Notes under the pieces: model-generated | Told to the model about the DNA's origin: nothing | What the model saw: the letters and a program-made list of their open reading frames with translations, nothing else | The model's database searches: none | In this document: positions 804 to 27,203 of the stretch, piece by piece | How positions within the stretch are numbered: the stretch's first letter is position 1 | How the letters are laid out: the number at the start of each line of letters is the position of its first letter | Program-made: the position numbers and the translations under genes | Source: Clostridium sp. | Lineage (GTDB): Bacteria; Bacillota; Clostridia; Clostridiales; Clostridiaceae | Assembly (NCBI RefSeq): GCF_050717545.1 | Contig: NZ_JBOITN010000045.1 | Coordinates: 3,561 to 67,560 of the forward strand | Direction: 5' to 3' | DNA: 64,000 bases

Positions 804-884
804 ATTATATATCTCCCTAAGGTATACTCATTTAGTATACTTTTACTTTAAGGCCTTTTCCCTATTTTGTCAACAAAAAAATTA

Positions 885-1740: not shown

Positions 1741-2740
1741 CTGCGTAAACCTCCTTAAGCTGCTCAATTGAGTATATACAGCGGTACATCCTATCATCGC
1801 CAAATATCTTTGTAGCAACGTTCTGCATGGTGCATTCAGGTTTTACATATTTACAACGTTCTGCAAATCTGCAACCATTGGGAGGATTCTTTAAATTTGG
1901 AGGAGTACCAGGTATAACTGATAGTTTTTTATCCCTATTACCCGCTTCTGGAACTATTATTGAGCCCATGAGGCCTTTTGAATAAGGATGCATAGAATCA
2001 AATATCATTTCCTTGGCATTTCCTTTTTCTACAATCTGTCCTGCATACATAACCATAATATCATTAGTTACATTATATAGGAGTGGAAGTTCATGGGTAA
2101 TGAAAACCATTGACTTTATTAATCCCTTTTCCATAAGGTTTCTTAGCATCTTGATAACCATCTTCTGAGAAGTAACATCAAGTGCTGATGAAGGTTCATC
2201 TGCGATGAGCACTTTTGGCGAAAGTATGGTTGAAATTGCAATAACTGTACGTTGTTTCATACCGCCCGAAAGTTCCACTGCATGCTTTTTAAGTACTTCA
2301 GGAGGCAATCCTAATAGTTCAAATCTTTCTTTTGCAAGGTCGTGAATATCCTTAGTCGCAGCCTTTGGGTTATGTGCATGAATAACATCCTCTATTAAAC
2401 TTATAATCTTCTGCGTAGGATTTAATGCATTCATAGCTGCTTGGGGTATATAAGAAATTTCATTACCTAAAATATTTTTACGTACATCATCCGACTTCAT
2501 TCCGGATATATTCTTGCCATCTATTATTATATCACCGCTTATATAATGAAGTGGTGATATATAATATCCCATCATACTAAGTGCCAGTGTGGACTTACCA
2601 CATCCAGATTCACCTGCTATGCCAAGGGATTTTCCTTCTTCTACTTTTAAGGAAACATCGTTAACTGCATAAATACCTTCTTTCGACCTAGTTACATATT
2701 TTGTATTTAAATTGTTTACCTCCAACATTATTTTCCCCAT
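1733..2740 (-). CDS. ABC transporter ATP-binding protein, OppD/DppD-like, with C-terminal oligopeptide-type extension
   Basis: Walker [10 protein letters not shown], signature LSGGMKQR, Walker [12 protein letters not shown], and a C-terminal GCRFAERC motif typical of OppD/F tails. AAGGAGG RBS. Confidence 0.9.
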
Positions 2741-2750
2741 AGATGCCTCC

Positions 2751-3992
2751 TTAATCTCTTAACTGTGGATTGAATACCTGATCAAGCCCTGTATTCATCA
2801 AGTTAAGTGAAAATGATATTAATGTAATTGCTAAGATAACTGGCAGAAAAGCCCACCATGATCCGGTAAGAGGTGCTTTATATGCCATTGCCCAGTTCAG
2901 CATTAGACCAAGTGTTGAAACTTTAGTCGTAGCCGGTCCTAGTCCTATCATTGACAACTGTGCCTCTGCAAGAATGCCAGAAGATATCTGAAGGATAAAT
3001 GCCATAACCACATAAGAAGCTACATATGGTAAAATATCTGTTAAAATAATCCTTGGCAGGCTATGACCTGATAATTTTGAGATATTAACATGATTACGAT
3101 TTCGAAGAGATATAACCTGGGAACGTACGGACCTTGTGGTCCATGGCCATGAGGTGAGACCTATAATCGTTGCCGTGAGCATAACCCCCCTTGCACTTTC
3201 ACCTACACTAAACGATATTAATACCAAAAGAATAAATGAAGGAATAACTGTAAAAATGTTCGTAATAAACATGATAAAATCGTCTAAAGTTCCTCCCACA
3301 TATCCTGACAAAAGTCCTAGTACTAATCCGAAAAGTGTAGCTATAGTTCCTGCAACCAGCCCAATCTTTAAAGATGTTCCCATAGCTGCTACAAGTTCTG
3401 TAAGCACATCACGCCCAAAGTTATCGGTTCCCAAAATAAAATTTCTTTTATTTACAATATCCTTCGTGTTTACAAATGCCTGTGAATCAAGTGGTTTAGT
3501 TGAACCTAATACTCCATCCTTATCCTTAGTAGATATATATATATCCTCACTGTTAATTAATTTGTTTATCTTATTATTTAACCTCACATAATTCATCTTC
3601 TCTGCAGCTAATAAACCTGTTTGCACAACTTTAGAGTCATAATTTTCCTCCCACAACTTAACAAGAGTCTCCACATCCTCTATATCTACTTCAGTTTTTT
3701 TTACATTGGCAAATCGAATAAGCCAGTCTGCCATACTTTGCTTATCTGCTATTGATATAGATTTAAGCCTCGCTGAATCCGTGTTTATCTTCAACGTATA
3801 TTCATTAGTCTGTACTACATCTTTTACAGCTACATAGGTACCTGGTTTATAGAACAGTCCACCTACCATATCTAGTGGATCTGCTTTTATAAACAGAGGG
3901 TAAAATATAATCATAAAAAATATAATAATAAAAATTACAAACCCAATAACAAATTTAGGCGAATGAAATACTTGTTTTATCAGATTCTTCAT
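2751..3992 (-). CDS. ABC transporter permease, OppC/DppC-like, with long extracytoplasmic insert after TM1
   Basis: BPD-transporter-type membrane protein. It has an N-terminal TM, a hydrophilic region of roughly 150 aa, then five TMs. GGAGG RBS. Confidence 0.85.
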
Positions 3993-4008
3993 AACAATAC
4001 CTCCTATA

Positions 4009-5013
4009 TTAGTCCTGTTGTGCCGCCTTGACTCTCGGGTCTATAAGCCCATAAAGTATCTCAACAGTCAAGTTTGCAATAAGTACCATAATTGTAATAA
4101 TCAATGTGCATCCAGAAATAAGAGGATAATCTCTTCCACTTATAGCTGCAAGCAATGTAGTACCAAGTCCCGGATAACTGAAAATAATCTCTGAAACTAA
4201 TGCGCCACCTACCATAGTTCCTAGTGATAATGCAAGTCCTGTAATTTGAGGCAGCATCGAATTTCTAAAAACATATTTAACAATCTTTGAGTCTTTGATA
4301 CCTAAAAAGCGACTGTACTTGACATAATCTTCATTAAGCTCATAGATTGACATGGAACGCATTCCAATTGCCTGCCCACCTATGGTTATAAGTACAATAG
4401 ACCAAAATGGAAGTTGATAATGATAAATAACTGAACCTATAAATTTGAGGCTGAGGTTTGGATTCATATCATATCCATATCCAAGTGCTGTGGGAAACCA
4501 TTTTAAATAGACTCCAAAGAAAAATTGTAATAAAATGGCCATTCCAAATGCTGGCATATTGCTTAAAAATAAGAAAGATGGAAGTATTCCTTTATCCCAT
4601 ACACCCCTTACATATGCAGCTATAGCTCCTAAAATATTTCCTAAAAACCAACCCACTATAATAGCTGGTAACTGAAGACATATTGTCCACCATACAGATT
4701 TTGCTAATATATCTGATACGGTTCTAGGATAATACATAAATGAAACACCTAAATTGCCTCTAAATAAATTCTTAACAAATTCAAAAAACTGTACATACAT
4801 AGGCTGATTTATTCCAAATGTCTTAGCATATTCTTCATAAACCTTTTGTATAGCTGTTTGATTCGTCATCCCTTTTGTTGCTCTTATTGCAATAGCTGAT
4901 ACTGGATTACCTGGCATAAGTCGAGGTAATATAAAATTTAAAAACACTGCGACTACAAAAGTCAATAAATACCATATAATCTTATTAGAATAATATTTTT
5001 TATAGCCTTTCAA
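4009..5013 (-). CDS. ABC transporter permease, OppB/DppB-like
   Basis: 334-aa polytopic protein with an OppB-type N-terminus ([26 protein letters not shown]). TTG start preceded by GAGGTGGTG. Confidence 0.85.
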
Positions 5014-5059
5014 TACATCACCACCTCATATGTAGTTAGTATAATTTAAAATTGAAAAC

Positions 5060-5098
5060 TAGCCATGCTTTCAGCTTACTACTTAAAAAGCATGGCTA
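5060..5098 (-). terminator. Intra-operon hairpin (partial terminator or processing site) after the binding-protein gene
   Basis: 12-bp perfect stem (tagccatgcttt / aaagcatggcta) followed on the minus strand by GTTTTCAATTTT. Sits between the SBP and permease genes. Confidence 0.6.
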
Positions 5099-5145
5099 AT
5101 TTTTTATACTATAGCAAGTAATTTAACATCTTACTTGCTTAGATA

Positions 5146-6996
5146 TTACTTAACTAATTCAATTGTATACAAACCAGCTATGCCATAACCATCTGTTAAA
5201 TCATATGGAGGAATTCCAATTTTTTCATTAAATTTTGAGCCCTCTTGTGGGTAATTTGTCCATATAGTTTCATTAACTGTATAAAATACTTCCGGTCTAT
5301 ACATCAATGAGAAAGATGGTACTTCTGTTAAATAAATTTTAGATAATTCTGTATAATGTGCTTTAAGTTTTGCCTTATCTGTCTCGTGAGGAATTAATTC
5401 TAATAATTTATCAGCTCTTGCATTTGCATATCCGCCAAAGTTACCAATCATCTGAGTTTTCATTTTATTGTAAGAACTTGATAATATACCATAAGCGCGC
5501 GTCCACGGATTTGAAATACCTGCTGCTGACGGACTGTACATAGCAATATCAAAGTTTTTATTTCCTAAATCATCATAAAATGTGTTGGCATCTGGAAAAT
5601 ATGTGGTGATCTCAATACCGATTTTTTTACCTGCTGCTGCAACGATTTCTAGAGAAGCATTCCAATCAGACCATCCTGCCGGACATTCAGCCTTAAATGC
5701 AAGGTTTTTCCCTTTATATTCTCTTATCCCATCACCATTTGTATCTTTAATTCCTGCAGTATCTAGAAGTTTCTTAGCGCTATCAATATCATTTCCAGTC
5801 CACTGAACACTCTTTAATTCAGTTTGATCTACTAATGCCTGCTCAGCTTTTGATGGGCTCATTAAAGAACGAGGAACATCTGTAAATGATGGAGAATATC
5901 CACTCATCGCAGTTTTAATAATTTGGTCATAGTCAACTGCTAACGCAATTGCTTTACGAACTGCAACTTGGTCTAGTCCTGGTTTCTTTATATTAAAGTA
6001 TGCGGTTGGCATTGTAGCTGCTAAATAATATGGAGATTCAGGTAAATATGTTGATATTTTTCCACCTGACATCATACTTGCAACATCACTAATGAACTGC
6101 TGTGAAACATCAACTTCACCAGCCTTGAATGCTGTATCACCAGCGGCATTATCTTTGAAGATATTATGAGCAATATATTTAGGAACTGGAAGTTTACCCC
6201 ACATAGAAGTTGCTTTTCCCCAGTAATTATCGTCTCTTTGTAATACAACCTTTTGGTCATTTGAGATAAAAGGTTTATATGGACCAGATCCAACAAAATC
6301 CTCCATCTTATCGATTTTAATCTTGGTAGCATCATTGTTATCTCTAGCTTCAACTTTCTGTAAGTATGCTTTTTGTAATACATACTGCTTTGGAAGGTAC
6401 TCTGTAACCTTTAATGGATTTAAGGCAACACCTTCACTATTTAATTTTGCTGTAAGTACAACTGTAGAATCATCTGTTGCTTTAACACTATCTATATATG
6501 TTGCGTAATCTGATCCGCCTGCACTTTCATATTTAACATTTGTATCAAATGTGTAAGCAACATCGTTTGCAGTAACTGCTGTTCCATCACTCCATTTTGC
6601 ATCCTTATTCATTTTAACTGTAAGTGTAGTATGAGCATCATTCCATACTGCATCTCCATCTGCAAGAAGCGGATACAGTTTACCATCCAGCATATTATAC
6701 ATGTATAGTGTTTCATACGATAATGTCCTAGCAGAATCCTTCTGTGCAATTGCCATAGCATTATTTGAGTTACTAGACAACGGATTCCAATCTGTGATTG
6801 CACCCCATTGCTGTCCATTAAAATAAACTGTTTCGTTTCTTGGCGTAGAACTCTTGTCAGTAGTTTTTGTGTCTGTGGTTTTTGTATCCGCCGCTTTCGA
6901 AACGGGTTCAGTAGTTTTTGAGCAGCCAATAGCCATGGTTGCAACCATTGTTGTAATTGTCAATAAAGAACAGATTTTTTTCCAGCGATTATTAAT
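5146..6996 (-). CDS. Family-5 (peptide/nickel-type) ABC substrate-binding lipoprotein, probably oligosaccharide-binding
   Basis: Large SBP_bac_5-like protein with lipobox AIGC and a Thr/Lys-rich linker. The reading frame is open upstream of the listed TTG (6963). An ATT at 6996 lies 8 nt after AAGGGGG and restores an RWKK n-region. The start is uncertain (6996 or 6963). Confidence 0.85.
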   Translation of the reverse strand: MNNRWKKICSLLTITTMVATMAIGCSKTTEPVSKAADTKTTDTKTTDKSSTPRNETVYFNGQQWGAITDWNPLSSNSNNAMAIAQKDSARTLSYETLYMYNMLDGKLYPLLADGDAVWNDAHTTLTVKMNKDAKWSDGTAVTANDVAYTFDTNVKYESAGGSDYATYIDSVKATDDSTVVLTAKLNSEGVALNPLKVTEYLPKQYVLQKAYLQKVEARDNNDATKIKIDKMEDFVGSGPYKPFISNDQKVVLQRDDNYWGKATSMWGKLPVPKYIAHNIFKDNAAGDTAFKAGEVDVSQQFISDVASMMSGGKISTYLPESPYYLAATMPTAYFNIKKPGLDQVAVRKAIALAVDYDQIIKTAMSGYSPSFTDVPRSLMSPSKAEQALVDQTELKSVQWTGNDIDSAKKLLDTAGIKDTNGDGIREYKGKNLAFKAECPAGWSDWNASLEIVAAAGKKIGIEITTYFPDANTFYDDLGNKNFDIAMYSPSAAGISNPWTRAYGILSSSYNKMKTQMIGNFGGYANARADKLLELIPHETDKAKLKAHYTELSKIYLTEVPSFSLMYRPEVFYTVNETIWTNYPQEGSKFNEKIGIPPYDLTDGYGIAGLYTIELVK

Positions 6997-7127: not shown

Positions 7128-8195
7128 TCAATTCCAAATTTCAGGTCCAAAACTCTTTAAAAATATACTGAGTTCAAAAGCCATCTGCTCAGCCTCTGGT
7201 ATTCTAATGCATAGCGGAGTTCCACGACCATTACATGAATATAAAAAGTGTTGAATTTTTACATCATTAATCTTAAGGCATATAATACCTATGGCACGAT
7301 CCCATGAAGAATGATGGTTCATAATTGTAGTAGTAAGTACAATAAAGGCATTTGGATAGCATCTTCGTATATTTAAAACAAATTCTCTGTAATGCTCACT
7401 CCATTTCTTTGCCTTTTCTCCCTTATCATCTTCCTTCATGTAGTCTCGCGGAACTGCATCATTTTGTCCAATATCAATTACCACTACCTGTGGGGTATAT
7501 CCTCTGAAGTCCCAATTAGTAATATCCCCAATATCTGGATTGAAATGGAGTTTATCATATATGCTTTCCATTCCAATACACTCTGTTTCATGGAAATATC
7601 CACTATCATCAAGAAGGGATATGCCTCCCTGTGCGATGATACTAACCTGTGCTTTCAAATTCCTTGCTGTCACCATAGCATAAGAATGCCAGGCATTTGA
7701 ATATTCTCCATTATAATTAAGATTCTGCTTGATTACATAATCCACATCCTCTATTAACTCCCCTGTAGCTGCTGAGTCTCCATAAAATTCAATACATTTT
7801 CTAGGTTTTTTAGAATGTTTTATTATCTTACTGTCTTTAGATACATTAAACCCATAGAAGGTGAATTCATGGCACGCATCTTGCCTTTTAAAAACAATTA
7901 CTTCATGGAATTTATCACCTCTCAAATCACTTACCAGTGTTATTTCTTGCAAGCTACTGTCATTTGAAAGAAGAACCTTTTTCTCCACTCCGTCTATGAT
8001 ATAACCTATATAGTTAATATAATAACTATGGTTATTTTTAACTAATATTTTAAGACTTACTCCTGTAAAACACATTGAAACTGAACTTGCCGGAAATATA
8101 AATATTGGTTCCAGAGAATTCGTAAAATCAATTCTTCCGCTGTAAGTCAGTTCTTCTAAGTTCGCAATAACAATTTTTTCACTTTCTCTTTCCAT
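7128..8195 (-). CDS. SGNH/GDSL hydrolase with N-terminal beta-sandwich, CE2-like acetyl esterase
   Basis: GDS block (FYGDSAATGE), later GQND block (IDIGQNDAV), about 355 aa, no signal peptide. The ATG at 8195 follows AGGTGA by 7 nt; the listed start at 8204 is a GTG inside that RBS. Confidence 0.7.
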   Translation of the reverse strand: MERESEKIVIANLEELTYSGRIDFTNSLEPIFIFPASSVSMCFTGVSLKILVKNNHSYYINYIGYIIDGVEKKVLLSNDSSLQEITLVSDLRGDKFHEVIVFKRQDACHEFTFYGFNVSKDSKIIKHSKKPRKCIEFYGDSAATGELIEDVDYVIKQNLNYNGEYSNAWHSYAMVTARNLKAQVSIIAQGGISLLDDSGYFHETECIGMESIYDKLHFNPDIGDITNWDFRGYTPQVVVIDIGQNDAVPRDYMKEDDKGEKAKKWSEHYREFVLNIRRCYPNAFIVLTTTIMNHHSSWDRAIGIICLKINDVKIQHFLYSCNGRGTPLCIRIPEAEQMAFELSIFLKSFGPEIWN

Positions 8196-8208
8196 TTTTC
8201 TCACCTTC

Positions 8209-10695
8209 TTACATTATATTATAAACGCTTCTAAGCTTTATACCCTTAGGTCTTCCGCTCAATATTTTAATTCTTCTTTCATCTCCATTTATATCAAAAT
8301 AATTATCCCCTAGGAGCATATCATCATTTTCATTTATTATCTCTACACTTTTTGCATAGCTTTTGGATGAAATTATAATTTCATCTCCATCTATTTTGTA
8401 GTTTAATTTTGGGTCAATAAATTTAAAGTGCTTTGAAACAGAGAATATGACAGTACCCATAGATATTATTTCTCCATCTTTTAACATTTCATAACTTACA
8501 TAGTCTTCATAAAGAGATGCTTCCTGCATATTGACAATACCAAGCCATGTGCTCGATAGTTTTTCTGTTACAACCTCTTGACATCCTTGCTTCTTTATTT
8601 CTGCTTTGTTATTACGAAGTGCCCACTTTACAGTAACCTTTTCATTATTCAAAGATTCATTTGCTACGCACAGCTGAATAGATTTTTTTACTTCATAAGG
8701 CTCAGCGTTAACATTTGTGTCCTGTGTTAGGATTCCTTCTTCTTTACATGAAATCATAAGAGGTGAAAAAAATCTTTTAGCATAATAATGCAGTGCCTTC
8801 CACCTGCCACAGTAATCTATGGATGACCAGGATGCAACCGGCCAGCAGTCATTTAGTTGCCAATAAATAGCCCCCATACATCTTCCTCTATTTCTACGGA
8901 AATGTTCCACACCATAGCGAATTGCATCTGCCTGTAGCAATTGTGACGCGTAAAGCAGCTTATCAAAATCATTAGGATATAAGTAAGTGTCACCCATATA
9001 ACTCATTATCTTGCTATTAGCTCCATTATTTCTCTGATGCTTTTCCATAACATAGGAGAATATATTCCTGTCCGATGGCTTCGTAAATGTTTCTACGGTT
9101 TTAAGTGCCGGGAATGACTGAAATCCAAATTCAGATATATATCGGAAGAAGAACTTCCTGTATTCAGTGAATGGTTTATTTCCATGCCATACGTCCCAGT
9201 AATGTACGTCGCCTCTGTTTTCATCATTTGGGTTATCAAATCCGCCTCCTGATGATGGGCTTGCAGGCCAGTAGAATGTCTGAGGGTCATTTTCTTTTAA
9301 TATCTTGGGAATAATATATTCATAAATCTTTATATAATCACTCTTAAGTTTTGGCGTAAGATCCCAGTTGCCAGTTGCTACAAACATTTCCATTTCATTA
9401 TTTCCGCACCAAAGAGCAAGTGAGGGATGACTTCGGATTCTCTTAATATTATCTTTAATTTCTGCTTTAATATTTTCTTCAAAATCTTCCGTCAGATTAT
9501 AATTTGCACATGCAAACATGAAATCCTGCCATACTATAAGTCCTAATTCATCACAGGCATCCCAAAATGAATCATATGGATAATTGCCTCCTCCCCATAC
9601 ACGTATTACATTAAAATGTGCGTCCTTGCACTGTTTCAAGAGATTATATGTTCTATCCCTTGTTACCCTGCTTAATATATTGTCTTCTGGTATATAATCT
9701 GCACCCATAGCAAATATTTTTATACCATTTACTTCATGTGCGAAACTCTCCCCAAACTCATCCTTTTCAATATTCATGGTCATAGTTCGAAGTCCAATTC
9801 GTCTCTCCCAGGTATCCAGTTTAACATAATCTTGCATTAGCACTACTTTTATATTATATAGTGGCTGATCCCCATATCCATTAGGCCACCAGATTTTCGG
9901 ATTATCAACTACAATTTTTTCAGGTGATTCGTTATAAACCTCTTCTTTTCCATCAGGATTTGTAATAATAACCTTATACGAATAACCACGTCTTATTGCC
10001 TTATTTCCAACATCATTAAATCTTATACCAGTTTTACCCTGTGTACGCGTCATATCCACCTGAAACCCAAGTGTTACCTTGCCCTCTTTGTGATCTTGGT
10101 AGATATAGGCACTGTCTATTCTTGCACTACTTATTCCCATAAGTGAAACATCTCTCCAAATGCCCATATCCGGAAGCCTTGGTCCCCAATCCCATCCGAA
10201 CATGCAGTGTGCTTTTCTAATCTGTGGAAAACCTCTCATAGCATCATCAGAACCTCCAATATGGAGTTTTTTATCTGCCTCTTTAATAAATTTAGTTGGC
10301 GAGTGAAAAAGTATTTTTAATTCATTTCCTTCTTCTTTAATGTATCTCTTTACTTCAAATTCCCAGGTTCTATGCATATTATTAACGTATGCAATATGTT
10401 GCCCGTTTAAATAAATATCTGCAAGTGAATCTATTCCGTCAAAATGCAACATAACTTCATCACAACTTAGCATGTCCTTTGATGTATTAAAGCTACTTTT
10501 ATACTCATAATCCTGCTCCATAAGCTTTAATGCCGTTAACTCATTATCACGGTAATATGGGTCCTCCATTTTATGATTTTTAAGTAGGTCACTATAAACT
10601 GATCCCGGTACAAATGCCTCCATAAATTTCTCATCGCTCATACCTTTCATCTTAAAGCCATCATTTAGTTTTTCAATAATCATATTCCCCTCCAT
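8209..10695 (-). CDS. GH2 beta-mannosidase
   Basis: 828 aa with a GH2 sugar-binding N-domain, [12 protein letters not shown], and acid/base region WCGNNEMEM typical of beta-mannosidases. No signal peptide. Alternative start at 10683 behind GGAGGGG. Confidence 0.8.
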
Positions 10696-10730: not shown

Positions 10731-13013
10731 TTATTTTTCATACAGCTTCTTGTTTGCATCATCTATCATCTGTATAATTTCATCATATGTGATGCTACCA
10801 TCTCCAAAACTTAAAATTCCGCGTATAGGCATGTATTTTAGCATGGCATTACCCATATCATCACTTATTGCATCTGAACTTTCTTCATCTTTGACTTTTA
10901 TCATACCTTTCATGAACTTATTTGCAATATTTACCAGCAATTTAAGTTCCTGTGCAGCTTCCGGCACTTCAAGCAAATCACCAAAGGTTGTATTGACAGT
11001 CACTCTAAATGGAAGCTTTTTTATAGCCTCTACATGGACCGTATCATTTAATACAATATCTCTTGATGACTTTCCAATAAGTATTTGATAATCTCCAGTC
11101 TCTACATACCAATCGTGTATTTGTGTATTATAATATGAAAAAGCACGTTTATTTAAAATAAATGTTACAGTCTTCGTCTCTCCCTTATTTAAGCTAATCT
11201 TTTCAAAACCACGCAGTTCCTTTAAAGGTCTTATAATATTAGACTCTTTAGCGCCAACATATAATTGTACAATTTCCTTACCTGCTTTATCTCCAGTGTT
11301 TGTAACATCCACAGTGACAGTAAGAGTTCCAATGTCCTTTATTTCTTTTGAACTTAATTTCAAATTGGAGTAATGAAAAGTGGTATAGCTAAGTCCGTAA
11401 CCAAATGGGAATAATACATCCATATCTTTTTTATCATAATATCTATATCCTACGAATACACCTTCCCTGTATTCCGATTTGTCCCCTTCTCCACCATAAT
11501 ATAGGTAAGATGGATTGTCTTGAAGCTTTCTCGGAAATGTCTCAGGTAATTTACCACTTGGGTTTACATCTCCGAAAAGCACGTCTACGCAAGCTTGACC
11601 TACTGCCTGACCTCCAAGATAAGCCTCTAATATTCCCTTAACATCATCTGCCCAAGGCATTTCAATTGGGGAACCATTATGAAGCACAACAACTGTATTT
11701 GGCTGTACCCTTACAATTCTCTTAATAAGTTCATTTTGGCAATTGGGTATGGACATATGAACCCTGTCATATCCTTCAGATTCGAAGGAATCTGGAAGTC
11801 CCGCAAATATAACTGCGACCTGGGCATTATTTGCAACCTCGCAAGCTTGACTTATCATTTCTTCATTAATTATGTCTTCATTATCCTCATAACCCTGTGC
11901 ATATATTACATCTGCTACATCGCCCGCCGCCGTAAGTGCACTTACTATTTTAAATGAGTTAACATGCGAACTTCCGCCACCCTGATATCTCGGACTGCCC
12001 GCAAATTCTCCAATTAATGCAATCTTGCTACCTTTCTTAAGCGGTAAAATGCCTTCATTTTTAAGAAGCACCAGGCACTCCCCCTCAATCTTTCTGGCAA
12101 GATCGTGATGCACGTCCATATCCCACTTAGTATCTGGTTTTCGGTTTTTAATATATCTGTTTATTATATTTAAAATTCTCTCAACTGCCTGATCTACTAC
12201 TTTCTCTTCTAATCTCCCCTCTTTTACTGCCTGCACAACCCTGTCATCGTTTACACCATTTGACCCAGGCATCTCAAGATCAAGTCCTGCTTCTATGCCT
12301 TTTACCCTGTCATTAACCGCTCCCCAATCACTCATAACGTAGCCATCAAAACCCCATTCACCTCTTAATATATCTGTAAGATATTTCTTGTTTTCAGAGG
12401 CTAGTGTTCCATTTATTCCATTATAAGAGCACATTATAGTCCAAGGCTTTGCATTTTTTACAGCGCCTTCAAATGCTGCAAGATAAATTTCCCTAAGAGT
12501 CCTTTCATCGATTTCAGAACTCGCACTCATCCTTCTGTGCTCTTGATTATTAGCCAAAAAATGTTTCATGCTAGTCCCTACATTTTCGCTCTGGACACCT
12601 TTAATATGGTTTGTTGCCATTTCAGTTGTTAAATATGGATCCTCAGAGAAATATTCAAAATTTCTACCGCATAATGGGGATCGTTTTATATTAACGGCAG
12701 GTCCTAAAATTGTACTTACGTTCTCATGCTGACACTCCTCTCCCAAAGCTTTCCCCATATCAAAAATGAGTTTCCTGTCAAAAGACGCTGCCATGGAGCA
12801 AGCTGCGGGGAAACATACTGCCTTAATGCTATCATTGATACCTAAGTTGTCTTCGCTTTGGTCTTGTTTACGCAGGCCATGAGGACCGTCACTTAGCATA
12901 ACTTCAGGAACCCCCAGCCTCTCTATAGCCTTTGTGTGCCAGAAGTCACTACCTGAACATAAACCTGCTTTCTCCTCAAGAGTCATTTCTGAAATAATTT
13001 TTTTCACATCCAT
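10731..13013 (-). CDS. GH3 beta-glucosidase (BglX-like) with Fn3-like C-terminal domain
   Basis: MTLEEKAGLCSG, SDGPHGLRKQ and nucleophile region GYVMSDWGA. 760 aa, AAGGAGG RBS, no signal peptide. Confidence 0.9.
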   Translation of the reverse strand: MDVKKIISEMTLEEKAGLCSGSDFWHTKAIERLGVPEVMLSDGPHGLRKQDQSEDNLGINDSIKAVCFPAACSMAASFDRKLIFDMGKALGEECQHENVSTILGPAVNIKRSPLCGRNFEYFSEDPYLTTEMATNHIKGVQSENVGTSMKHFLANNQEHRRMSASSEIDERTLREIYLAAFEGAVKNAKPWTIMCSYNGINGTLASENKKYLTDILRGEWGFDGYVMSDWGAVNDRVKGIEAGLDLEMPGSNGVNDDRVVQAVKEGRLEEKVVDQAVERILNIINRYIKNRKPDTKWDMDVHHDLARKIEGECLVLLKNEGILPLKKGSKIALIGEFAGSPRYQGGGSSHVNSFKIVSALTAAGDVADVIYAQGYEDNEDIINEEMISQACEVANNAQVAVIFAGLPDSFESEGYDRVHMSIPNCQNELIKRIVRVQPNTVVVLHNGSPIEMPWADDVKGILEAYLGGQAVGQACVDVLFGDVNPSGKLPETFPRKLQDNPSYLYYGGEGDKSEYREGVFVGYRYYDKKDMDVLFPFGYGLSYTTFHYSNLKLSSKEIKDIGTLTVTVDVTNTGDKAGKEIVQLYVGAKESNIIRPLKELRGFEKISLNKGETKTVTFILNKRAFSYYNTQIHDWYVETGDYQILIGKSSRDIVLNDTVHVEAIKKLPFRVTVNTTFGDLLEVPEAAQELKLLVNIANKFMKGMIKVKDEESSDAISDDMGNAMLKYMPIRGILSFGDGSITYDEIIQMIDDANKKLYEK

Positions 13014-13240
13014 AATATCCTCCTTATATATTTTTGATTTACTTATGCATTTTAATGTAGTTGTATATCATAATTGAATATAAAATATACTTTGTATATA
13101 AAAGGATTTCTACATTACTAATAAAATTCCTTCTATAAATCATAAGTTAATAGAATATTTTATATAATTCATGTACGACAAGAAGGACCTGCTCAAGAAT
13201 TTTATCCATGAACAGGCCCTGCATTTATGTTTTTCTAGAA

Positions 13241-14440
13241 TTACTTCATCGACTCAATAATGCTATCCGCAAGTGAATCCATTAAATCAACATCATCTTC
13301 CTTCATAGTAGAGTTTATTGACATCTCATTGTCTAAAATAGTCATATCTTTCATCTCATCCAAAAGTTCACGCATCAACTTTCCAGATTGAGGAGCCCAT
13401 GAGCCATTTTCTATAAGAGCTATAGTTCGTTTTTGAAGATTTAATGCCTTCATATCTGTTAGATATGCATGCATTGGTGGATAAATCTTCAAGTTATATG
13501 TTACGCTGGCAAGAACCAAATGACTATATTTAAATGTCTCAGAAATCAAATAAGAAACATGAGTTTTTGAAACATCATACATAACAACGTTTTTCATTCC
13601 TTTTTCTACAAGCCTTGTTGCTAGATCGTTTGCTGCCGCCTCCGTATTTCCGTACATTGTTCCATAAACTATCATTACACCATTTTCCTCTGGTTCATAA
13701 CGACTCCATTTGTCGTACTTCTCAAGCAAGTACCCTAAATCATTACGCCATACTGGTCCATGTAGAGGGCAGATAATCTTGATGTCAATAGTTCCTGCTT
13801 TCCTCAAAAGATCTTGAACATGAGGACCATACTTGCCTACGATGTTTGTGTAATACCTTCTGGCATCATCAAGGAAGTCACGGTCAAAATTCATCTCATC
13901 ATTAAATAGTTTTCCGTCAAGCGACCCGAAAGTACCGAAAGCGTCAGCGGCAAATAATACACCATTGTAAGTATCAAATGTCACCATAGCTTCTGGCCAA
14001 TGTACCATGGGAGCCGCTACAAATGCAACAAGATGTTTTCCAAATGACATTGTATCGCCTTCACTAACTTCCTCTATTTTACCATCAATAGCGAAACCGA
14101 ACTGATGCATGAACAATGCGGCTTTTTGAGAACATACAATTTTCACCTTAGGATAACGAAGAATAATCTCTTCAATGCATGCTGCATGATCAGGTTCCAT
14201 ATGATTAATTACCATATAATCTAATGGTTTGCCTTTTAAAATTGATTGAATGTTTTCAAGGAACTGACGGCAAATTGACCAGTCTACTGTATCAAAGAGT
14301 ACTGTCTTCTCATCCATTAGCAAATACGAGTTATAAGAAACGCCTCTTGGAATTGGATGAATGTTTTCAAAAAGGGCAAGGCGACGATCGTTGCCACCAA
14401 CCCAATAAAGATCCTCAGTTACATTTCTAACACAATACAT
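13241..14440 (-). CDS. fprA: Class A flavodiiron protein (FprA-type O2/NO reductase)
   Basis: N-terminal metallo-beta-lactamase-like di-iron domain (NHMEPDHA) plus a C-terminal flavodoxin domain. 399 aa. AAAGGAGG RBS. Confidence 0.9.
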   Translation of the reverse strand: MYCVRNVTEDLYWVGGNDRRLALFENIHPIPRGVSYNSYLLMDEKTVLFDTVDWSICRQFLENIQSILKGKPLDYMVINHMEPDHAACIEEIILRYPKVKIVCSQKAALFMHQFGFAIDGKIEEVSEGDTMSFGKHLVAFVAAPMVHWPEAMVTFDTYNGVLFAADAFGTFGSLDGKLFNDEMNFDRDFLDDARRYYTNIVGKYGPHVQDLLRKAGTIDIKIICPLHGPVWRNDLGYLLEKYDKWSRYEPEENGVMIVYGTMYGNTEAAANDLATRLVEKGMKNVVMYDVSKTHVSYLISETFKYSHLVLASVTYNLKIYPPMHAYLTDMKALNLQKRTIALIENGSWAPQSGKLMRELLDEMKDMTILDNEMSINSTMKEDDVDLMDSLADSIIESMK

Positions 14441-14496
14441 ATATATAATCCTCCTTTATACTAAAAACAAATTATTATATTTAATAATTATAAAAA

Positions 14497-16404
14497 TTAA
14501 ACTTCTATAAACATATCTTTTTCTTCACCACAAGAAGGGCAAGTCCAGTCTTCAGGTATCTTTTCAAATACAGTTCCAGGATTTACTTCGCCTTCTGAAT
14601 CACCCTCACCAGGATCGTACTCAAAACCGCATCCGTTACATACATAATGTTTCCAAGTCGGAATAATTCTCGAAGGAGCAGTTGACTTCATCTTAACCAT
14701 TGGTGGAGCATCTTTCTTTTCCTCTCCATTATCTAAAGCAGCAGTAAGTAATGGTAATATTTCCATCAAATCGCCTACGATGCCGTAATCTGAGTTCTTA
14801 AATATTTTCGCTTTAGAATCGATATTTATAGCAACTATTGTAGCCGCATCCTTTATGCCCTTCAAATGTTGACCTGCACCTGAAATACCGCAAGCAATAT
14901 AAAGATTTCCTTTAAATTTTTGACCAGACATACCAACATAACGGTTTAGTGGTAAATATTTAAGTGTTTCAGCTACTGGACGTGAAGAACCTATTGCTGC
15001 ACCAGCTTGAACTGCCAAGTCTTCAATAAGTTGCATATTTTCCTTTTCGCCTATACCTTGTCCTACACTAACAACTCTTTCAGCCTTAGTTATAGGAGTG
15101 TCCAAAGGAATTCCAACTGTAAAGTCATATTTATCTGCCTTAAGAGCTTCCACAAGTGCATTTACATTTTCACTTGCAGTTCCTTCCTTGAAAATTACTT
15201 TCTTACGATAACCTGTTGCAGGTCCACGCTTAGTAGCTTTCCCTGTGTTCTCGTTTTTAGGCATCTTACCTATGATGTGGGCTGCAATAACAAGACGTTG
15301 AATCTCATTGGTTCCTTCATATATAGTACATATTTTAGCATCTCTATAAGCTCTTTCAACTTCCATACCTTTTAAATAACCATTTCCACCAAATATTTGA
15401 AGTGCATCGTTCACAATTTCAAGACAAACGTCAGATGCATATTGCTTCGCCATAGCAGCTTCCATACTGTAACTCTCATGATTTTGTTTAAGCTCTGCTG
15501 CACTGTAAATAAGTAATCTAGCTGCTCTAAGTTTTGTCGCCATATCTGCCAACTTAAATGAAATAATTTGCTGCTGACATATAGGTTTACCAAATTGAAC
15601 TCTTTCTTTTGAGTACTCCAAAGCATTTTCATAAGCACCTTGTGCTATTCCTAGAGCTTGAGATGCAATACCAATACGGCCACCGTCCAAAGTTGCCATA
15701 GCAATCTTGAATCCATCTCCCTCTTTGCCTAGTAAATCTTTCTTAGGAACTATCACATCATTAAATATTAGCTCTGCAGTTGCAGATGATCTAATACCCA
15801 TCTTATCGTAATGTTGTCCAAAGCTAAATCCTTCTGCGTCTTTTTCCACAATAAATGCACTTATACCACGAACACCAATATCTGGCGTAGTAATTGCAAA
15901 AACAACGTAAATATCAGCCTTACCAGCATTTGTGATGAATATTTTTTCACCATTCAAAATATAATTATCACCATCGAGTACTGCAGTTGTTTCTGTACCA
16001 CCAGCATCACTACCAGCATTTTCTTCTGTAAGACCGAATGCGCCAAGTTTCTCTCCATTTGCGAGTGGCACTAAGTATTTTTGCTTCTGCTCCTCTGTTC
16101 CATAGGCAGAAATTGGGTAAGCACCCAAAGATGTATGAGCAGAAAGAATAACGCCCGTTCCACCATCCACTCTTGATAATTCCTCAACAGCAATTGCATA
16201 ACTCATTACGTCAAGGCCGGCCCCACCATATTCTTTTGGATATGGAATACCCATCATTCCCATTTCACCTAACTTCTTAACTGCTTCCTCTGGAAATTTA
16301 TTTTCTTGATCTAACATAAATGCAATAGGCTTAACTTCCTCTTCTGCAAACGCTCTAATCCTAGTCCTCAAATCTTCATGTTGCTCATTAGTCTTAAAAA
16401 ACAT
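14497..16404 (-). CDS. Fusion protein: acyl-CoA dehydrogenase + ETF-alpha C-terminal FAD domain + rubredoxin
   Basis: Residues 1 to about 380 are ACAD-like (catalytic-base region [12 protein letters not shown]). Residues about 440-560 match the ETF-alpha FAD domain ([16 protein letters not shown]). The last 50 or so residues are a rubredoxin ([10 protein letters not shown]...WTCPSCG). Confidence 0.85.
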
Positions 16405-16717
16405 AAATATACCTCCCTTTAATTAGATACAGTTTCATGACTTGTCCAATTCTTTATCACCTTGAAATATCTATAATAAATATGTTTATTTTATAAACAA
16501 TATTTGTAAACGTATGCTAAATGTATACCTATTCTGTATAGTTTCATTATATATGTTATAAATACACATTGCAAGTCCAATACTAATCTTTTTCTCGACA
16601 TAATTCGCTATAAACTTGGGTGACTTTATAATTCTATTTACCCCCATTCACTGATTTCAACTCTTTTATAGTTGCGTCCATTAAATGGGGCTCTAATATT
16701 ATTTATATGAAAACTTT

Positions 16718-18121
16718 CTACATAGACTTTTCTGCTAGTTTTGACAATGGACTTCTTTCAACATGTTCAAGTGTTACGTGCCCTGTTATATTAAATGGTT
16801 TCATTTTTTCAATAGTATAAACTAACCCATTGGATTTTTCATCAACTAATGTATTATCTATTTGATTATCAGATGGATCACCAATGAACACAAATTTAGA
16901 TCCAAACCCAGCTCTTGTTAGCATAAGTTTTGCTAAATGAGGTGTTGTCTGCTGTGATTCATCAACTATAACTAACGCATCGGATAAAGTTCTACCTCTC
17001 ATGTAAACAAATGTTTTAGTTTCAATCCGTCCACTTTGGCGAAATTTTTCAATGAAGTTATCCACAGTTACCTGCGTTCTTTTAACCTCATGCTCATCAA
17101 CTTTCACACCTTTTTTCTCTTTAATCTTATCCTTTTTTGCCTTATCTTTTGCATCCATTAAATTTTCTACGGCGTCATAAAAACTTCCCATCCATGGTTT
17201 TAATTTTTCTTCCTCAGTTCCAGGCAAAAATCCTATATCATCCCCTGCTGGAATTACTGGTTTCACAAAAATAATTCTTCTAAATAATCCTTGTTCTATT
17301 ACCCTCTTAAGTGCAACTGCAGTTGAAAGAATTGTTTTTCCAGATCCTGCTCCACCAGAAATTGTTACAAATTCTATTTTGGGGTCCATTAATAACTCAA
17401 AAGCCATCTTTTGCTGTTTATTTATTGGCACTAATCCAAAAGCAGATTCATTAACATATTTTAGAGGTACTATTGCCTTTCCGTTAAACTTTCCAATTAA
17501 CTCATATTTTTCATCATCCGAGCTTGTAATATCTAAAAATTCATTTGGATATAAGGTAAAGTCAAAACCACTAGGCATTGCAATTCCTCCTCCATTTTGT
17601 ATTTCATCCATAAGTTTTGATGAAAGAGTAATATTTCTATATCCTTTATATAATTCACTAGCATTAACCTTATCATTTTTATAATCCTGGGTAACTATTC
17701 CTAAAGCATCACCTTTTATAGCCATATACAAATCTTTTGTAACTAGTATTGTAGATATCTCTTTATTACTATCCGCAATGTTTTTTGTTATTGCTAATAT
17801 TTTAGTATCATTTTTGCTAAAATCAAAACCATTTGGCAAACAGCTCAGATCGTTATTGTTTAGCTCTATTTTTATTGTTCCGCCATTTGCAAATGTGATA
17901 CCTTCATGCAGATTTCCAATTTTTCTAAGATTATTTATTTCTCTAGCCGCGCTCCTTGCATGATAACCCACTATACCTTCTCTTTTTTTAAGGTTATCTA
18001 ACTCTTCTATACATATTATTGGAATGATAATATTATTATCTTCAAAACTATAAATAAAATTAGGATCATGAACCATTACATTTGTATCAATAATATAGTT
18101 TTTAACCATAGCTCTCTTCAT
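16718..18121 (-). CDS. PIN-domain / PhoH-like ATPase (YlaK family)
   Basis: N-terminal PIN (YIIDTNVMVHDP) and C-terminal PhoH NTPase (Walker A GGAGSGKT, Walker B VIVDESQ). The start may be the ATG at 18109. Confidence 0.85.
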   Translation of the reverse strand: MKRAMVKNYIIDTNVMVHDPNFIYSFEDNNIIIPIICIEELDNLKKREGIVGYHARSAAREINNLRKIGNLHEGITFANGGTIKIELNNNDLSCLPNGFDFSKNDTKILAITKNIADSNKEISTILVTKDLYMAIKGDALGIVTQDYKNDKVNASELYKGYRNITLSSKLMDEIQNGGGIAMPSGFDFTLYPNEFLDITSSDDEKYELIGKFNGKAIVPLKYVNESAFGLVPINKQQKMAFELLMDPKIEFVTISGGAGSGKTILSTAVALKRVIEQGLFRRIIFVKPVIPAGDDIGFLPGTEEEKLKPWMGSFYDAVENLMDAKDKAKKDKIKEKKGVKVDEHEVKRTQVTVDNFIEKFRQSGRIETKTFVYMRGRTLSDALVIVDESQQTTPHLAKLMLTRAGFGSKFVFIGDPSDNQIDNTLVDEKSNGLVYTIEKMKPFNITGHVTLEHVERSPLSKLAEKSM

Positions 18122-23100: not shown

Positions 23101-23631
23101 TTATTCCATAAGAAAATACCCTTCTTCTTTCGAAGTACCTATGGGCTCCCCTTTTGCTAGTTTAATGGCAAAAGCTGAAATTGTTCTTAAAGATTTATTT
23201 AGCCCGATGCCACCTTTATTAGGTGTTTCTATAATGCGAAGCTTCTTTCTAAAAGCCTCAGTACCTGTACTGTCTTTTGCCATAGCTGCAAAAGCTGGAA
23301 TATTGAGTTTTTCTTTGATGCTTAGAGCAAGCTCTCCACAACACTCTCCATATCTTTTGTAGTTTAATGCGGGTCCACAAATTACTACATCAGCATTAAA
23401 TTTCTTTATCATCTCGGTAATTTCTTCTATAGCTTTTTCCTTATTCTCTAGAAAATAATTATCTCCACATATTATGGTACCAACAATATCTCCACCATTT
23501 TTCATAGATATAGTTTTTAGTAACATTCCCATACCTACTGCTCCATTTTGAGATTGTGGCTGTATATCCATTCTTTCGTCACCACCAAGTCCTGCTTGTA
23601 CTTGATTGAGGAATTGCACCATTCGTATCAT
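23101..23631 (-). CDS. Stand-alone GrdB N-terminal-domain protein (glycine/sarcosine/betaine reductase component B-like, no selenocysteine half)
   Basis: VQFLNQVQAGLGGDE..., ICGDNYFLENKEKA..., ICGPALNYKRYG... and KLAKGEPIGTSKEEGY follow the N-terminal half of GrdB. Only 176 aa. Confidence 0.6.
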   Translation of the reverse strand: MIRMVQFLNQVQAGLGGDERMDIQPQSQNGAVGMGMLLKTISMKNGGDIVGTIICGDNYFLENKEKAIEEITEMIKKFNADVVICGPALNYKRYGECCGELALSIKEKLNIPAFAAMAKDSTGTEAFRKKLRIIETPNKGGIGLNKSLRTISAFAIKLAKGEPIGTSKEEGYFLME

Positions 23632-24352: not shown

Positions 24353-27115
24353 CTATAATTTTATTATATTTTGTAAAATAAAAGCAATTTCATCATCATT
24401 AAAAGTAACTCCATAAAATTTTTCAATATTAAAGAGACCTTCTGTTAAACAATTAAATTCATATTTAAATTTTTCTTTTAATATTTCTTTAGAACTACAT
24501 ACTGGGATTTTCTCTTTTGCTATCATTTTACTTATATTGCATATCATATGAACCATGAGACTAACTGATACATTATATTCTATATTTACATTCATACTAT
24601 TATTAATTATACAAATAAATTCTTTATATAATTCTTCAAATTTGGATAATTCCACATTATGAATATCATTTTGAAGTGATTCAATAAATGTACCATAGCT
24701 AGCCTCTTCAGGAATATTTTTAGAAGTTTTCATATTAGAATCCAAAATGTGTTTAACCTTACTACATTCCTTATCCATGAAAACTTCATATGTAGATATA
24801 TATGGCACTCCATATATTTTAGGATCAATGGTCCCTACAATTGCTAATATATTCTTTTGCTTTGCAAGTTCACCTAAAACATTGTACATATGTTGTTTAT
24901 TATTCCATGCAATAGGAAATACCTTAACCTTATATTCATTTGTATTTATCTTACTTTCTATAAAGTTTTTTAATTTTATAGCACTTCCTTCACCTGTAGT
25001 ACATAAGGTTATAATTATATTATTATCTTTTGGTATAAAACTATCGGAAACCGTTAACTGTGAGGATGAATACTTAGTAATGTCATGTTTTATTTTTTCA
25101 TAAATAACATCTATATCGGCTTCTATTACAGCTCTTCTTGAACATTCAATTGCCACAAGGGTAGACACCATATCTAAAGTTCTAATATCAATGCCTGTGT
25201 CTTTATTAATAAGTTCGCCAAACATGTTAAGCGACCCCATATCAACAAGAAGCATTATACCAGACCCCTGATTTTTCTTTATAATGATATCCTTTAATTT
25301 CTCATAAGCAATTTCAGGACTTATATCAAGGGCCATATCATAAGCATAAACATTATTTGCTTTCACCAATTTATTAACAACATCCGCCATAGAAGATGCA
25401 GTAGCTTTTCCATGCATAGCTATAACTATTATAGGTTTATCATCTAAAGTTTCACTTTCATTTTCCATTTCATCAACAGCAAGGAACATAGTAATAAATC
25501 CAACTTCATCTTCTGGAACTATTACATCATATTTTTCGTCTATAAGCCTCGCAATCTCTTTCGCTATTTCAAATTCTTTAGGATAGTCTCTTTTTATAAT
25601 TAAAAGATTATAATTAATAATCGTTTTATTTTCTTTAATTCTTAATATGCTGCTATTTAAATGCAAACATAACCCATAAAAAACCTTGAGTTTAAAAATT
25701 TTTCTAAGGGTTTTTTCAGCTTTTTTAAGGGAATTTTCTACTAAACTTATAATTTTCTTATCTACTATCTTAGAAAGTTCCTCTTTATTTATTTCTTGCT
25801 CAAAATTGTGAATATAGTTTTTAAAATAATTTTGTATTTCCATTTCCATAATAGTTTTAACTTCGCTATCTTCAGTGCCTCTTTTTCGTAGTTCTTCTAC
25901 TCTTTCTTCTATATTTTTGTAAAAACTATAACTTGCATAGTTATCATCATTACTAGAGAATTTTTCCTTTCCTTTTGATGTAAAAGAAATTATCTCTCCT
26001 TCTTTTATAAGTTTATCTATTTTTTTAGAATAATCTTTATATATAAACAAACCTTGATTTACGTTAGAGTTAAAGTCCGTACAATGAACTTCTACATTTT
26101 TAAGCCTGGTTGATACAGCATTAAGAAAAGCATTTGCGCATCCTAGCTGCACATCACTTTTTAATTGACCTACATTTCCAGGGCATTCATATAGAAGTAG
26201 CTGCCTTATGGTATTTGTAGAAACAGAAATTTCTTTTTTTATTCTAGTTGCTTCAATTTCAAAAAATTCACAAATAATATCAAATCTTTCCTGGAGCGTT
26301 CTCTCATCTAATGAAGGTATTCTTATATTCATTGGTATTCTTCTTGTAAATGTGTTTAAAAGTGTCTCATCAATATTTTCCGTAGTGGCACATATAATAA
26401 GCAATTCACTTTTCCTATTGATTTCTTCACCCAGAGGCGTATATAAATTTTTATCAATTAAATAAAAAAGCATTTCTTGACCATCAGGTGGTAACCTATG
26501 CACTTCATCAAGAAACAGAATTCCTCCGTCTGCTTTTGAAACTAGCCCTTCCCTATCTTTATCTGCTCCTGTAAATGCACCTTTTTTGCATCCGAAAAGA
26601 TGGGCTAGAAGTAGCTGCGAATTATTTGCATAATCTGCGCAATTAAATACCTCGAAAGGAGCACTTACATCAAATGTATTGCTTTCTATTGCAAACTTGT
26701 GCATTAGCTCTGCAAACATTGTTTTGCCAACTCCACTTGGACCAACTATAATAGTGTGAAGCCCATTAGGTGGATATAACACTGCTGCCTTTGCCTGTTG
26801 TACACATTTTTTTAAACTTCTATCACTTCCAAAAATAGTATCAAGGCTTGTTTTATGAATATTAGCCGTTGTATATTCTCTTTTAACTTCATTAAGTTTA
26901 TATAAAACCGGCTTATGCTTTATTTTAATCAATATGTCTTCTTTATATAAATCATTAAGAATTAAACTAACATTGCTTCTTTGCAATTTTAATTTTTGTG
27001 AGATTTCTTCTGTATAAACGCCTTTGCTACCTTTTTTATTTTCCTGTTTTATTAGTTCTAATATTTGTTCTCTATTATTCATATTGTTTGCTTTATACTC
27101 TTCTTTAGTAACCAT
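24353..27115 (-). CDS. Sigma-54-dependent LevR/CelR-type activator (HTH, AAA+, PRD, EIIB-Gat-like, PRD, EIIA-Man-like)
   Basis: Walker A GPSGVGKT, sigma-54 contact loop GAFTGA, LFLDEVHRL, then PRD/EII-like regions. About 920 aa. The ATG at 27115 follows AGGTGG by 5 nt; the listed start at 27124 is a GTG within the RBS. Confidence 0.85.
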   Translation of the reverse strand: MVTKEEYKANNMNNREQILELIKQENKKGSKGVYTEEISQKLKLQRSNVSLILNDLYKEDILIKIKHKPVLYKLNEVKREYTTANIHKTSLDTIFGSDRSLKKCVQQAKAAVLYPPNGLHTIIVGPSGVGKTMFAELMHKFAIESNTFDVSAPFEVFNCADYANNSQLLLAHLFGCKKGAFTGADKDREGLVSKADGGILFLDEVHRLPPDGQEMLFYLIDKNLYTPLGEEINRKSELLIICATTENIDETLLNTFTRRIPMNIRIPSLDERTLQERFDIICEFFEIEATRIKKEISVSTNTIRQLLLYECPGNVGQLKSDVQLGCANAFLNAVSTRLKNVEVHCTDFNSNVNQGLFIYKDYSKKIDKLIKEGEIISFTSKGKEKFSSNDDNYASYSFYKNIEERVEELRKRGTEDSEVKTIMEMEIQNYFKNYIHNFEQEINKEELSKIVDKKIISLVENSLKKAEKTLRKIFKLKVFYGLCLHLNSSILRIKENKTIINYNLLIIKRDYPKEFEIAKEIARLIDEKYDVIVPEDEVGFITMFLAVDEMENESETLDDKPIIVIAMHGKATASSMADVVNKLVKANNVYAYDMALDISPEIAYEKLKDIIIKKNQGSGIMLLVDMGSLNMFGELINKDTGIDIRTLDMVSTLVAIECSRRAVIEADIDVIYEKIKHDITKYSSSQLTVSDSFIPKDNNIIITLCTTGEGSAIKLKNFIESKINTNEYKVKVFPIAWNNKQHMYNVLGELAKQKNILAIVGTIDPKIYGVPYISTYEVFMDKECSKVKHILDSNMKTSKNIPEEASYGTFIESLQNDIHNVELSKFEELYKEFICIINNSMNVNIEYNVSVSLMVHMICNISKMIAKEKIPVCSSKEILKEKFKYEFNCLTEGLFNIEKFYGVTFNDDEIAFILQNIIKL

Positions 27116-27203
27116 ACTATCCACCTACTTATAGATACATTATATCATAATAAATTATTTTGACAATTCTGACATTTGAGATTAACTGTAGGATAAGTTG
27201 TGT

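Follow-up and report, generated by a model that had tools for sequence, protein, structure and literature searches.

Two adjacent genes on the minus strand of a 64,000-nucleotide (nt) stretch of Clostridium sp. DNA (contig NZ_JBOITN010000045.1, positions 3,561 to 67,560; the whole stretch is called the window) very probably form an operon for butyryl-CoA:oxygen oxidoreductase (BOOR) in a psychrophilic member of the bowmanii/estertheticum group of Clostridium, as judged from sequence and by analogy to an enzyme from Fusobacterium nucleatum. The upstream gene, bcr (14497–16404), codes for a 635-residue fusion of an acyl-CoA dehydrogenase, the FAD domain of ETF-alpha and a rubredoxin (BCR, the BOOR alpha subunit). 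The downstream gene, fdp (13241–14440), codes for a class A flavodiiron protein of 399 residues (FDP, the beta subunit), and an intercistronic spacer of 56 nt (14441–14496, minus strand) lies between the two. This dicistronic arrangement is that of BOOR. An earlier description of the same DNA, made by a model from the letters alone (the sequence-only reading), had drawn attention to a 635-residue triple fusion followed 56 nt downstream by an FDP gene; both open reading frames lie where it had put them, and every detail of that description was confirmed.

The same reading had also held that no biochemical characterization of such a fusion exists, which is out of date. The BCR and FDP pair of F. 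nucleatum was characterized by Bystrom and Wolthers (Biochemistry 2024, 63:2352; PMID 39206807) and named BOOR; these authors describe it as conserved in Firmicutes. According to PMC12288474 (J Bacteriol 2025), F. nucleatum FN1423 is an FDP encoded in a bicistronic unit with a gene whose product is a multidomain enzyme, both proteins assemble into an α4β4 complex, and this complex links butyryl-CoA oxidation with O2 reduction to H2O and does not show NO reductase activity. This review also states that BOOR is encoded by many obligate anaerobes among the Firmicutes. PMC12528894 assigns one FAD to the dehydrogenase, a second FAD to the Etf-alpha module and an FeS center to the rubredoxin-like domain. 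PMC12630350 places BOOR within the metabolism of F. nucleatum, and a 2026 preprint (PMC13404960) reports the same gene pair beside an Rrf2 regulator in Lachnospiraceae. With the enzyme's characterization dating from 2024 and its occurrence across Firmicutes on record, the system is already known.

The domain architecture of BCR could be established by comparison with Pfam. The protein matches Acyl-CoA_dh_N (residues 6–118), Acyl-CoA_dh_M (122–217), Acyl-CoA_dh_1 (229–377), ETF_alpha (PF00766, 438–518) and Rubredoxin (587–632, 65.6 bits), all far over cut-off, and does not match the ETF N-terminal family PF01012 in the same search. This result bears out the proposed order of a complete dehydrogenase, the C-terminal FAD domain only of ETF-alpha, and a rubredoxin. 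The short-chain acyl-CoA dehydrogenase domain (residues 1–379, encoded by 15268–16404 on the minus strand) finds its best match in the PDB in Bcd from Clostridium difficile (5ol2_C, E = 7e-143) and contains the predicted catalytic base Glu363 in an IYEGT motif. The ETF-alpha domain II-like module with the predicted second FAD site (residues ~413–560; 14725–15168, minus strand) maps to the C-terminal third of EtfA only, both in NCBIfam models (for example, positions 192–311 of 313) and in ETF-alpha chains in the PDB (residues 188–306 of 1efp and 194–312 of 1efv). The rubredoxin domain (residues 586–635; 14500–14649, minus strand) provides C589, C592, C622 and C625 as probable iron ligands. In an alignment of 30 BCR homologues, E363, these four cysteines and the ETF-alpha motifs that contact FAD (S474-R475, GMSGQ with S493, SGAGQ512-H513, and D539-Y-G at 539–541) are invariant. 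No solved structure among the PDB matches spans the whole fusion. An AlphaFold2 model of BCR based on the 30-sequence alignment was discarded (mean pLDDT 48.9, pTM 0.33); its poor quality is explained by homologues that are too alike (75–93%) to carry signal.

The FDP aligns from end to end with D. gigas ROO and Moorella FprA (1e5d, 1ycf). Pfam identifies an ODP/Lactamase_B domain (residues 34–228) and Flavodoxin_1 (257–335) without a further domain, and an FDP that consists of these two modules belongs to class A. Each di-iron ligand of Escherichia coli FlRd (H79, E81, D83, H84, H147, D166 and H227) has an aligned counterpart here, namely H80, E82, D84, H85, H147, D166 and H227. Taken together, the pair therefore has the residues predicted to hold two FAD, an Fe(Cys)4 center, FMN and a di-iron site. 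We also inspected two second-sphere positions that are mutated in solved structures, since the D52K and S262Y variants of FlRd were among the PDB matches. The equivalent of FlRd Asp52 is again an aspartate (D53), and the equivalent of Ser262 is a tyrosine (Y263), which is the residue that is reported to go with O2-reducing FDPs (Goncalves et al., JBC 2014). This signature is mixed, and as a sequence feature it does not decide between a preference for O2 and a preference for NO.

The region around the two genes has the appearance of a single transcription unit. A σ70-type promoter with the elements TTGCAA and TATAAT separated by 17 nt (16546–16574, minus strand) matches 10 of 12 consensus positions, and both its −35 and −10 elements are kept in 12 aligned Clostridium loci. 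The spacer between the genes (14441–14496) contains no G+C-rich hairpin, and a scan for sites resembling promoters or terminators scored none in it; an AGGAGG ribosome-binding site (14450–14455) precedes the ATG of fdp by 9 nt. Downstream of fdp we found a terminator-like hairpin (13184–13220, minus strand; −22.3 kcal/mol, z = −3.9) by RNA folding, and none of 200 shuffled sequences folded as well. A generic terminator scan had missed this hairpin because its loop is longer than the limit of the scan. An Rfam scan of 12900–16800 gave no match at E ≤ 0.1, hence no known riboswitch or leader RNA is found in this interval. In relatives (L001–L013, compared to 16405–16520 of the window), insertions and deletions give the 5′ leader between operator and bcr a length of anywhere between about 27 and 321 nt. 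This leader also contains TGTTTAT-AAA-ATAAACA, a perfect 7-3-7 palindrome (16483–16499), which we evaluated as a possible Rex or PerR-like site and dropped because it is not palindromic in aligned relatives and fits neither the Rex nor the PerR consensus.

The fusion is common and conserved to an unusual degree. A word-indexed homologue search with BCR returned at least 8000 matches. The best 120 of these share at least 85% identity over the local alignment, 118 of them extend over at least 99% of the query, and they represent a large number of Clostridium species. Among the matches listed, those from C. bowmanii, Clostridium sp. CF012 and C. estertheticum come closest, which places the window in that psychrophilic group. 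BCR is 80% identical over its full length (507/636, one gap) to protein P0224 from a Fusobacterium genome, and the FDP is 76% identical to the partner protein on the same Fusobacterium chromosome, where the two genes are 50 nt apart. Within the window itself, neither the Pfam-scanned open reading frames nor a tblastn search with both proteins against the entire window revealed a second FDP, another BCR copy or bcd/etf genes.

Gene neighborhoods were surveyed in one genome per species. The resulting 80 loci, in all of which the identity is at least 75%, span Clostridium, Fusobacteriaceae, Synergistaceae, Lachnospiraceae and Oscillospirales, with Blautia, Eisenbergiella, Caproiciproducens, Pygmaiobacter, Anaerosphaera and Aminipila among the genera. 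The sequence-only reading had proposed to count how often the fusion neighbors an FDP gene, and in this survey an FDP homologue (63–95% identical) lies directly downstream of bcr on the same strand in 80/80 loci, with gaps of 18–193 nt, so this adjacency is not due to chance. The flanking genes are otherwise not conserved, and bcr-fdp behaves as a self-contained two-gene module.

Several other features of this distribution deserve mention. Between Bacillota, Fusobacteriota and Synergistota, BCR and FDP remain 75–80% identical, which is well above the expectation for vertical descent; the module may have spread horizontally, or be under very strong constraint, or both. When the C-terminal 256 residues of BCR were searched against 1.84 billion representatives of 50%-identity clusters, a single full-length three-domain representative (P0239) was listed among the 150 best, so that very few clusters seem to make up the family at this level. 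Variant architectures occur among the cluster representatives (P0245, P0286 and P0297): one protein of 257 residues combines the ETF-alpha FAD domain with rubredoxin only, and the others, of about 530–555 residues, combine acyl-CoA dehydrogenase and ETF-alpha domains without rubredoxin. Two separate bcr-fdp copies were found in C. psychrophilum (L010, L011) and in the metagenome-assembled genome gSpreadC_ID_19 (L009, L017). A contig binned as Methanobacterium sp. (L078, WASR01000185.1) contains a pair with 86% and 85% identity to that of the window, and a binning error is more likely than an archaeal BOOR. In C. homopropionicum (L036, 5517–5678), a 54-residue FDP fragment upstream of bcr that is 74% identical to residues 131–184 is probably a gene remnant.

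These data can be combined with the published enzymology into a very probable electron path. The dehydrogenase domain of BCR would oxidize butyryl-CoA, yielding crotonyl-CoA, with Glu363 as the catalytic base and with hydride transfer to the first FAD. Single electrons would then move to the second FAD in the fused ETF-alpha domain II-like module, from there to the rubredoxin with its Fe(Cys)4 center at the C-terminal end, and from the rubredoxin iron to the FMN in the class A FDP. The di-iron center of this protein would be the endpoint, where O2 would be reduced to two H2O at the expense of two molecules of butyryl-CoA. By this mechanism the BCR–FDP complex would remove O2 without any cost in NAD(P)H, and crotonyl-CoA would be regenerated for the bifurcating Bcd-EtfAB/Rnf route. 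Domain order, cofactor and catalytic residues, the layout of the operon and the strict linkage of the two genes are derived here from sequence; cofactor content, the α4β4 stoichiometry, butyryl-CoA as substrate, O2 as the sole acceptor and H2O as product are taken from the F. nucleatum enzyme. The sequence-only reading had envisaged a wire of this kind that ends on either O2 or NO. Its O2 branch is borne out by published BOOR, which has the same architecture and whose residues are kept; the NO branch is unsupported because the characterized complex has no NO reductase activity.

We then turned to the question of how the operon may be controlled. Clustering of neighboring genes over the 80 loci identified one recurrent family, of about 137 residues and assigned to Rrf2 by Pfam, which is encoded no more than three genes from the pair in 27 loci. 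The corresponding gene in the window, rrf2 (390–803, minus strand), codes for an Rrf2-family regulator of 137 residues (Pfam Rrf2, E = 1.6e-32) that we predict to be the BOOR repressor. In the closest relatives, an orthologue with 82–90% identity follows directly after fdp. In public runs of RNA as well as of DNA, contigs connect 803 or 873 straight to 13242 or 13223, and relatives therefore have fdp and rrf2 side by side without the gene cluster that separates them in the window. Gene order around rrf2 and fdp varies among relatives L003, L004 and L009. The regulator shares conserved D8, C92, C100, C108 and H111 with the Lachnospiraceae type (32% identical), and its cysteines are spaced C-x7-C-x7-C, not C-x5-C-x5-C. 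Fe-S Rrf2 regulators such as NsrR, IscR and RsrR have a winged-helix Rrf2 fold in which three C-terminal cysteines, together with Asp8 or a histidine, hold the cluster. The window regulator passes the cut-off of the superfamily model only and scores 51 bits with the NsrR model, which requires 182.

A candidate operator supports the connection between this regulator and the operon. When up to one mismatch is allowed, the motif GTATAC-N7-GTATAC occurs at two sites in the 64-kb window. One is CTATAC-N7-GTATAC (16523–16541, minus strand), which lies directly downstream of the bcr −10 element. The other is a perfect GTATAC-N7-GTATAC (822–840, minus strand), located 19–37 nt upstream of the rrf2 ATG; it is the sole match in the window with zero mismatches and may mediate autoregulation of rrf2. 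Over the 80 loci, the motif was found upstream of bcr in 31 and adjoining rrf2 in 12, with 7 other matches in 961 kb. The aligned bcr upstream regions of relatives contain up to four GTATAC boxes that repeat with a period of 13 bp from the −35/−10 spacer to about +30, and the four-box array corresponds to two 19-bp GTATACC-N5-GGTATAC palindromes. The motif is limited to a subset of loci, nearly all labeled Clostridium or Clostridiaceae. Such a pattern is expected of a repressor of both BOOR and itself, with all sites being predictions. An Fe-S Rrf2 protein would repress the single bcr-fdp promoter through the 19-bp palindromes over the −10 and start region, and repression would be relieved once O2, reactive oxygen species or NO damages its cluster. 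In the two genomes with duplicated modules, the copies with the GTATAC motif (L010 and L009) also have an adjacent rrf2; L011 has neither, and the available stretch upstream of bcr in L017 is only 86 nt long.

Evidence on expression comes from two metatranscriptomes labeled "ice metagenome". The contigs in question belong to relatives that are 85–99% alike, not to this strain. Depth in the RNA runs over bcr-fdp (13341–16675) is 430–1450, and depth in DNA run X1 is 63–88. The flanking genes (glycoside hydrolase, ABC transporter, PhoH and VanW) reach RNA depths of 0–12 and about 25–81 in X1, and the bins that contain rrf2 (1–1334) reach 30–72 and 33–67, respectively. Thus, relatives of the operon are about 100-fold deeper than neighboring genes in both ice metatranscriptomes, whereas the DNA run is flat at 25–88. 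An RNA contig from a relative covers 14289–14658 across the bcr-fdp spacer, and depth falls to about zero just past the hairpin behind fdp. This observation fits a single, strongly expressed bcr-fdp transcript in relatives. The gene upstream of bcr on the same strand, which encodes a PIN-PhoH fusion ATPase (16718–18121), is assigned to a place outside the operon because it has almost no metatranscriptome depth.

From these observations we derive a broader proposal, to which we give even odds: that in one Clostridium lineage BOOR is under the control of an Fe-S Rrf2 repressor of its own, for which no equivalog is named, and of tandem palindromes, that the operon, once derepressed, is among the most abundant transcripts of psychrophilic clostridia in cold, oxygen-rich ice, and that it represents a main route for coping with oxygen in environmental clostridia. 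In this proposal, the regulator is predicted to bind both palindromes over the bcr promoter and a single palindrome at the promoter of rrf2. No description of the GTATAC operator or of BOOR expression in situ was found in the searchable literature, and both the regulator/operator prediction and the strong expression in ice may be new.

Several points weigh against the assignment or against this proposal. As to the enzyme, the biochemistry is that of F. nucleatum, and the Clostridium pairs are known from their genes. Our account of BOOR biochemistry was taken from PMC12288474, PMC12528894, PMC12630350 and PMC13404960, which cite the 2024 study. Orthology was measured against the pair from another Fusobacterium genome, not against FN1424/FN1423; a homologue search seeded with a Fusobacteriaceae protein gave entries for F. 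varium and F. ulcerans and multispecies entries, none of them labeled F. nucleatum. The acyl-CoA substrate cannot be read from the sequence, and the NCBIfam model that fits BCR best, acryloyl-CoA reductase AcrC, scores 480 bits where 640 are required. As to regulation, rrf2 in the window lies on the same strand as fdp, about 12.4 kb away, and the genes in between encode an Opp-type ABC transporter (922–6963) and proteins for glycan utilization: a CE2 esterase (7128–8204) and two glycoside hydrolases of families GH2 (8209–10695) and GH3 (10731–13013). Of the four operator boxes at bcr, the two upstream ones are degenerate in the window. Finally, the RNA evidence consists of assembled contigs from relatives, whose depth reflects expression poorly.

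Three alternative functions of the pair can be compared with BOOR. It is unlikely, if conceivable, that the enzyme of this Clostridium is a different or broader acyl-CoA:O2 oxidoreductase that acts on a substrate such as propionyl-, valeryl- or isobutyryl-CoA. The match to AcrC, a subunit of acryloyl-CoA reductase, would agree with such a function even though it is under cut-off, as would the absence of butyrate-pathway genes from the scanned parts of the window. On the other hand, the 80% identity to the Fusobacterium orthologue extends across the entire dehydrogenase domain, the closest structure is a butyryl-CoA dehydrogenase, and this clostridial group makes butyrate. We judge it quite improbable that the pair serves mainly as an acyl-CoA-dependent NO reductase (NO to N2O), and hence in nitrosative rather than oxidative defense. 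The top-scoring models and structures for the FDP are indeed NO reductases (NorV/flavorubredoxin and Moorella FprA), and D53 preserves the aspartate found in the NO-selective E. coli enzyme, but Y263 represents the other, reportedly O2-type state, so that the two-residue signature points both ways. The PMC13404960 preprint likens the BOOR-linked Rrf2 of Lachnospiraceae to the NO sensor NsrR, whose model the window protein misses by the margin given above. Against this function, NO reductase activity was nil in the F. nucleatum complex (PMC12288474).

A third possibility, which we consider barely credible, is that the fusion works in reverse: the rubredoxin would accept electrons from some other donor, crotonyl-CoA would be reduced, and the FDP would be a mere neighbor. 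The published name of BCR, "butyryl-CoA reductase", and the reversibility of Bcd-type enzymes lend this idea some appeal. However, rubredoxin has a potential around 0 mV and would be a poor donor for a couple at −10 mV. The fdp gene is strictly linked to bcr across short gaps, and the two proteins diverge in step over the loci (BCR 75–93% and FDP 63–95% identical to the window proteins). A stable α4β4 complex and the direction of catalysis have moreover been published (PMC12288474 and PMC12528894).

BOOR is of interest because strict anaerobes can use it to remove O2 at the expense of butyryl-CoA, a weak reductant (about −10 mV), rather than of NAD(P)H, and because it returns crotonyl-CoA to energy-conserving bifurcation. 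It may account for the oxygen tolerance of butyrate producers. The window leaves this established picture unchanged and adds a clostridial example, a concrete prediction of operator and regulator, and a hint of very strong expression of the BOOR operon in cold natural habitats. If the broader proposal is true, BOOR is a route for coping with oxygen beyond anaerobes of the gut and the mouth. Elsewhere in the window, an open reading frame of 176 codons (23101–23631) corresponds to the N-terminal half of the selenoprotein GrdB only and ends at a TGA, beyond which the frame is not continued; it is found near the gene for a σ54 activator with PRD and EIIA domains (24353–27124).

Comparison with known systems shows what is shared and what differs. 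BOOR of F. nucleatum (FN1424 and FN1423) resembles the window pair in its three-domain BCR, class A FDP, gene order and short gap; its host is a member of the Fusobacteriota, whereas that of the window is a psychrophilic Clostridium (Bacillota). The window pair goes together with an Rrf2 regulator and with GTATAC operators; neither the gene nor the motif was found in L052, the sole Fusobacteriaceae locus scanned for both, and no gene with an Rrf2 Pfam match is listed beside bcr-fdp in the Fusobacterium loci. The BOOR-Rrf2 systems of gut Lachnospiraceae and Faecalibacterium, as presented in PMC13404960, are like the window lineage in that an Rrf2 gene lies beside bcr-fdp and encodes Asp8 and three cysteines, and the logic proposed there is the same, namely an Fe-S repressor that is released by an oxidant. 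The placement of the regulator differs, since it precedes bcr in the Lachnospiraceae type, follows fdp in the close Clostridium relatives, and is remote in the window. In the chain of D. gigas (NADH → NRO → Rd → ROO) and in Hrb-FprA of Moorella, rubredoxin also feeds a class A FDP that reduces O2 or NO. There, electrons come from NAD(P)H through a separate flavoprotein plus a rubredoxin that is either free or of the high-molecular-weight type; in the window pair they would come from an acyl-CoA, and dehydrogenase and rubredoxin are fused. Finally, Bcd-EtfAB (C. difficile 5ol2, C. kluyveri) is the closest structural relative of the dehydrogenase domain, and in it, as would be the case in BCR, electrons pass between the dehydrogenase FAD and the α-FAD of ETF domain II. 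BCR differs in that it lacks EtfB, the N-terminal domain of EtfA, the β-FAD and the NADH site, and is therefore not expected to bifurcate; its electrons would flow from the acyl-CoA outward to O2.

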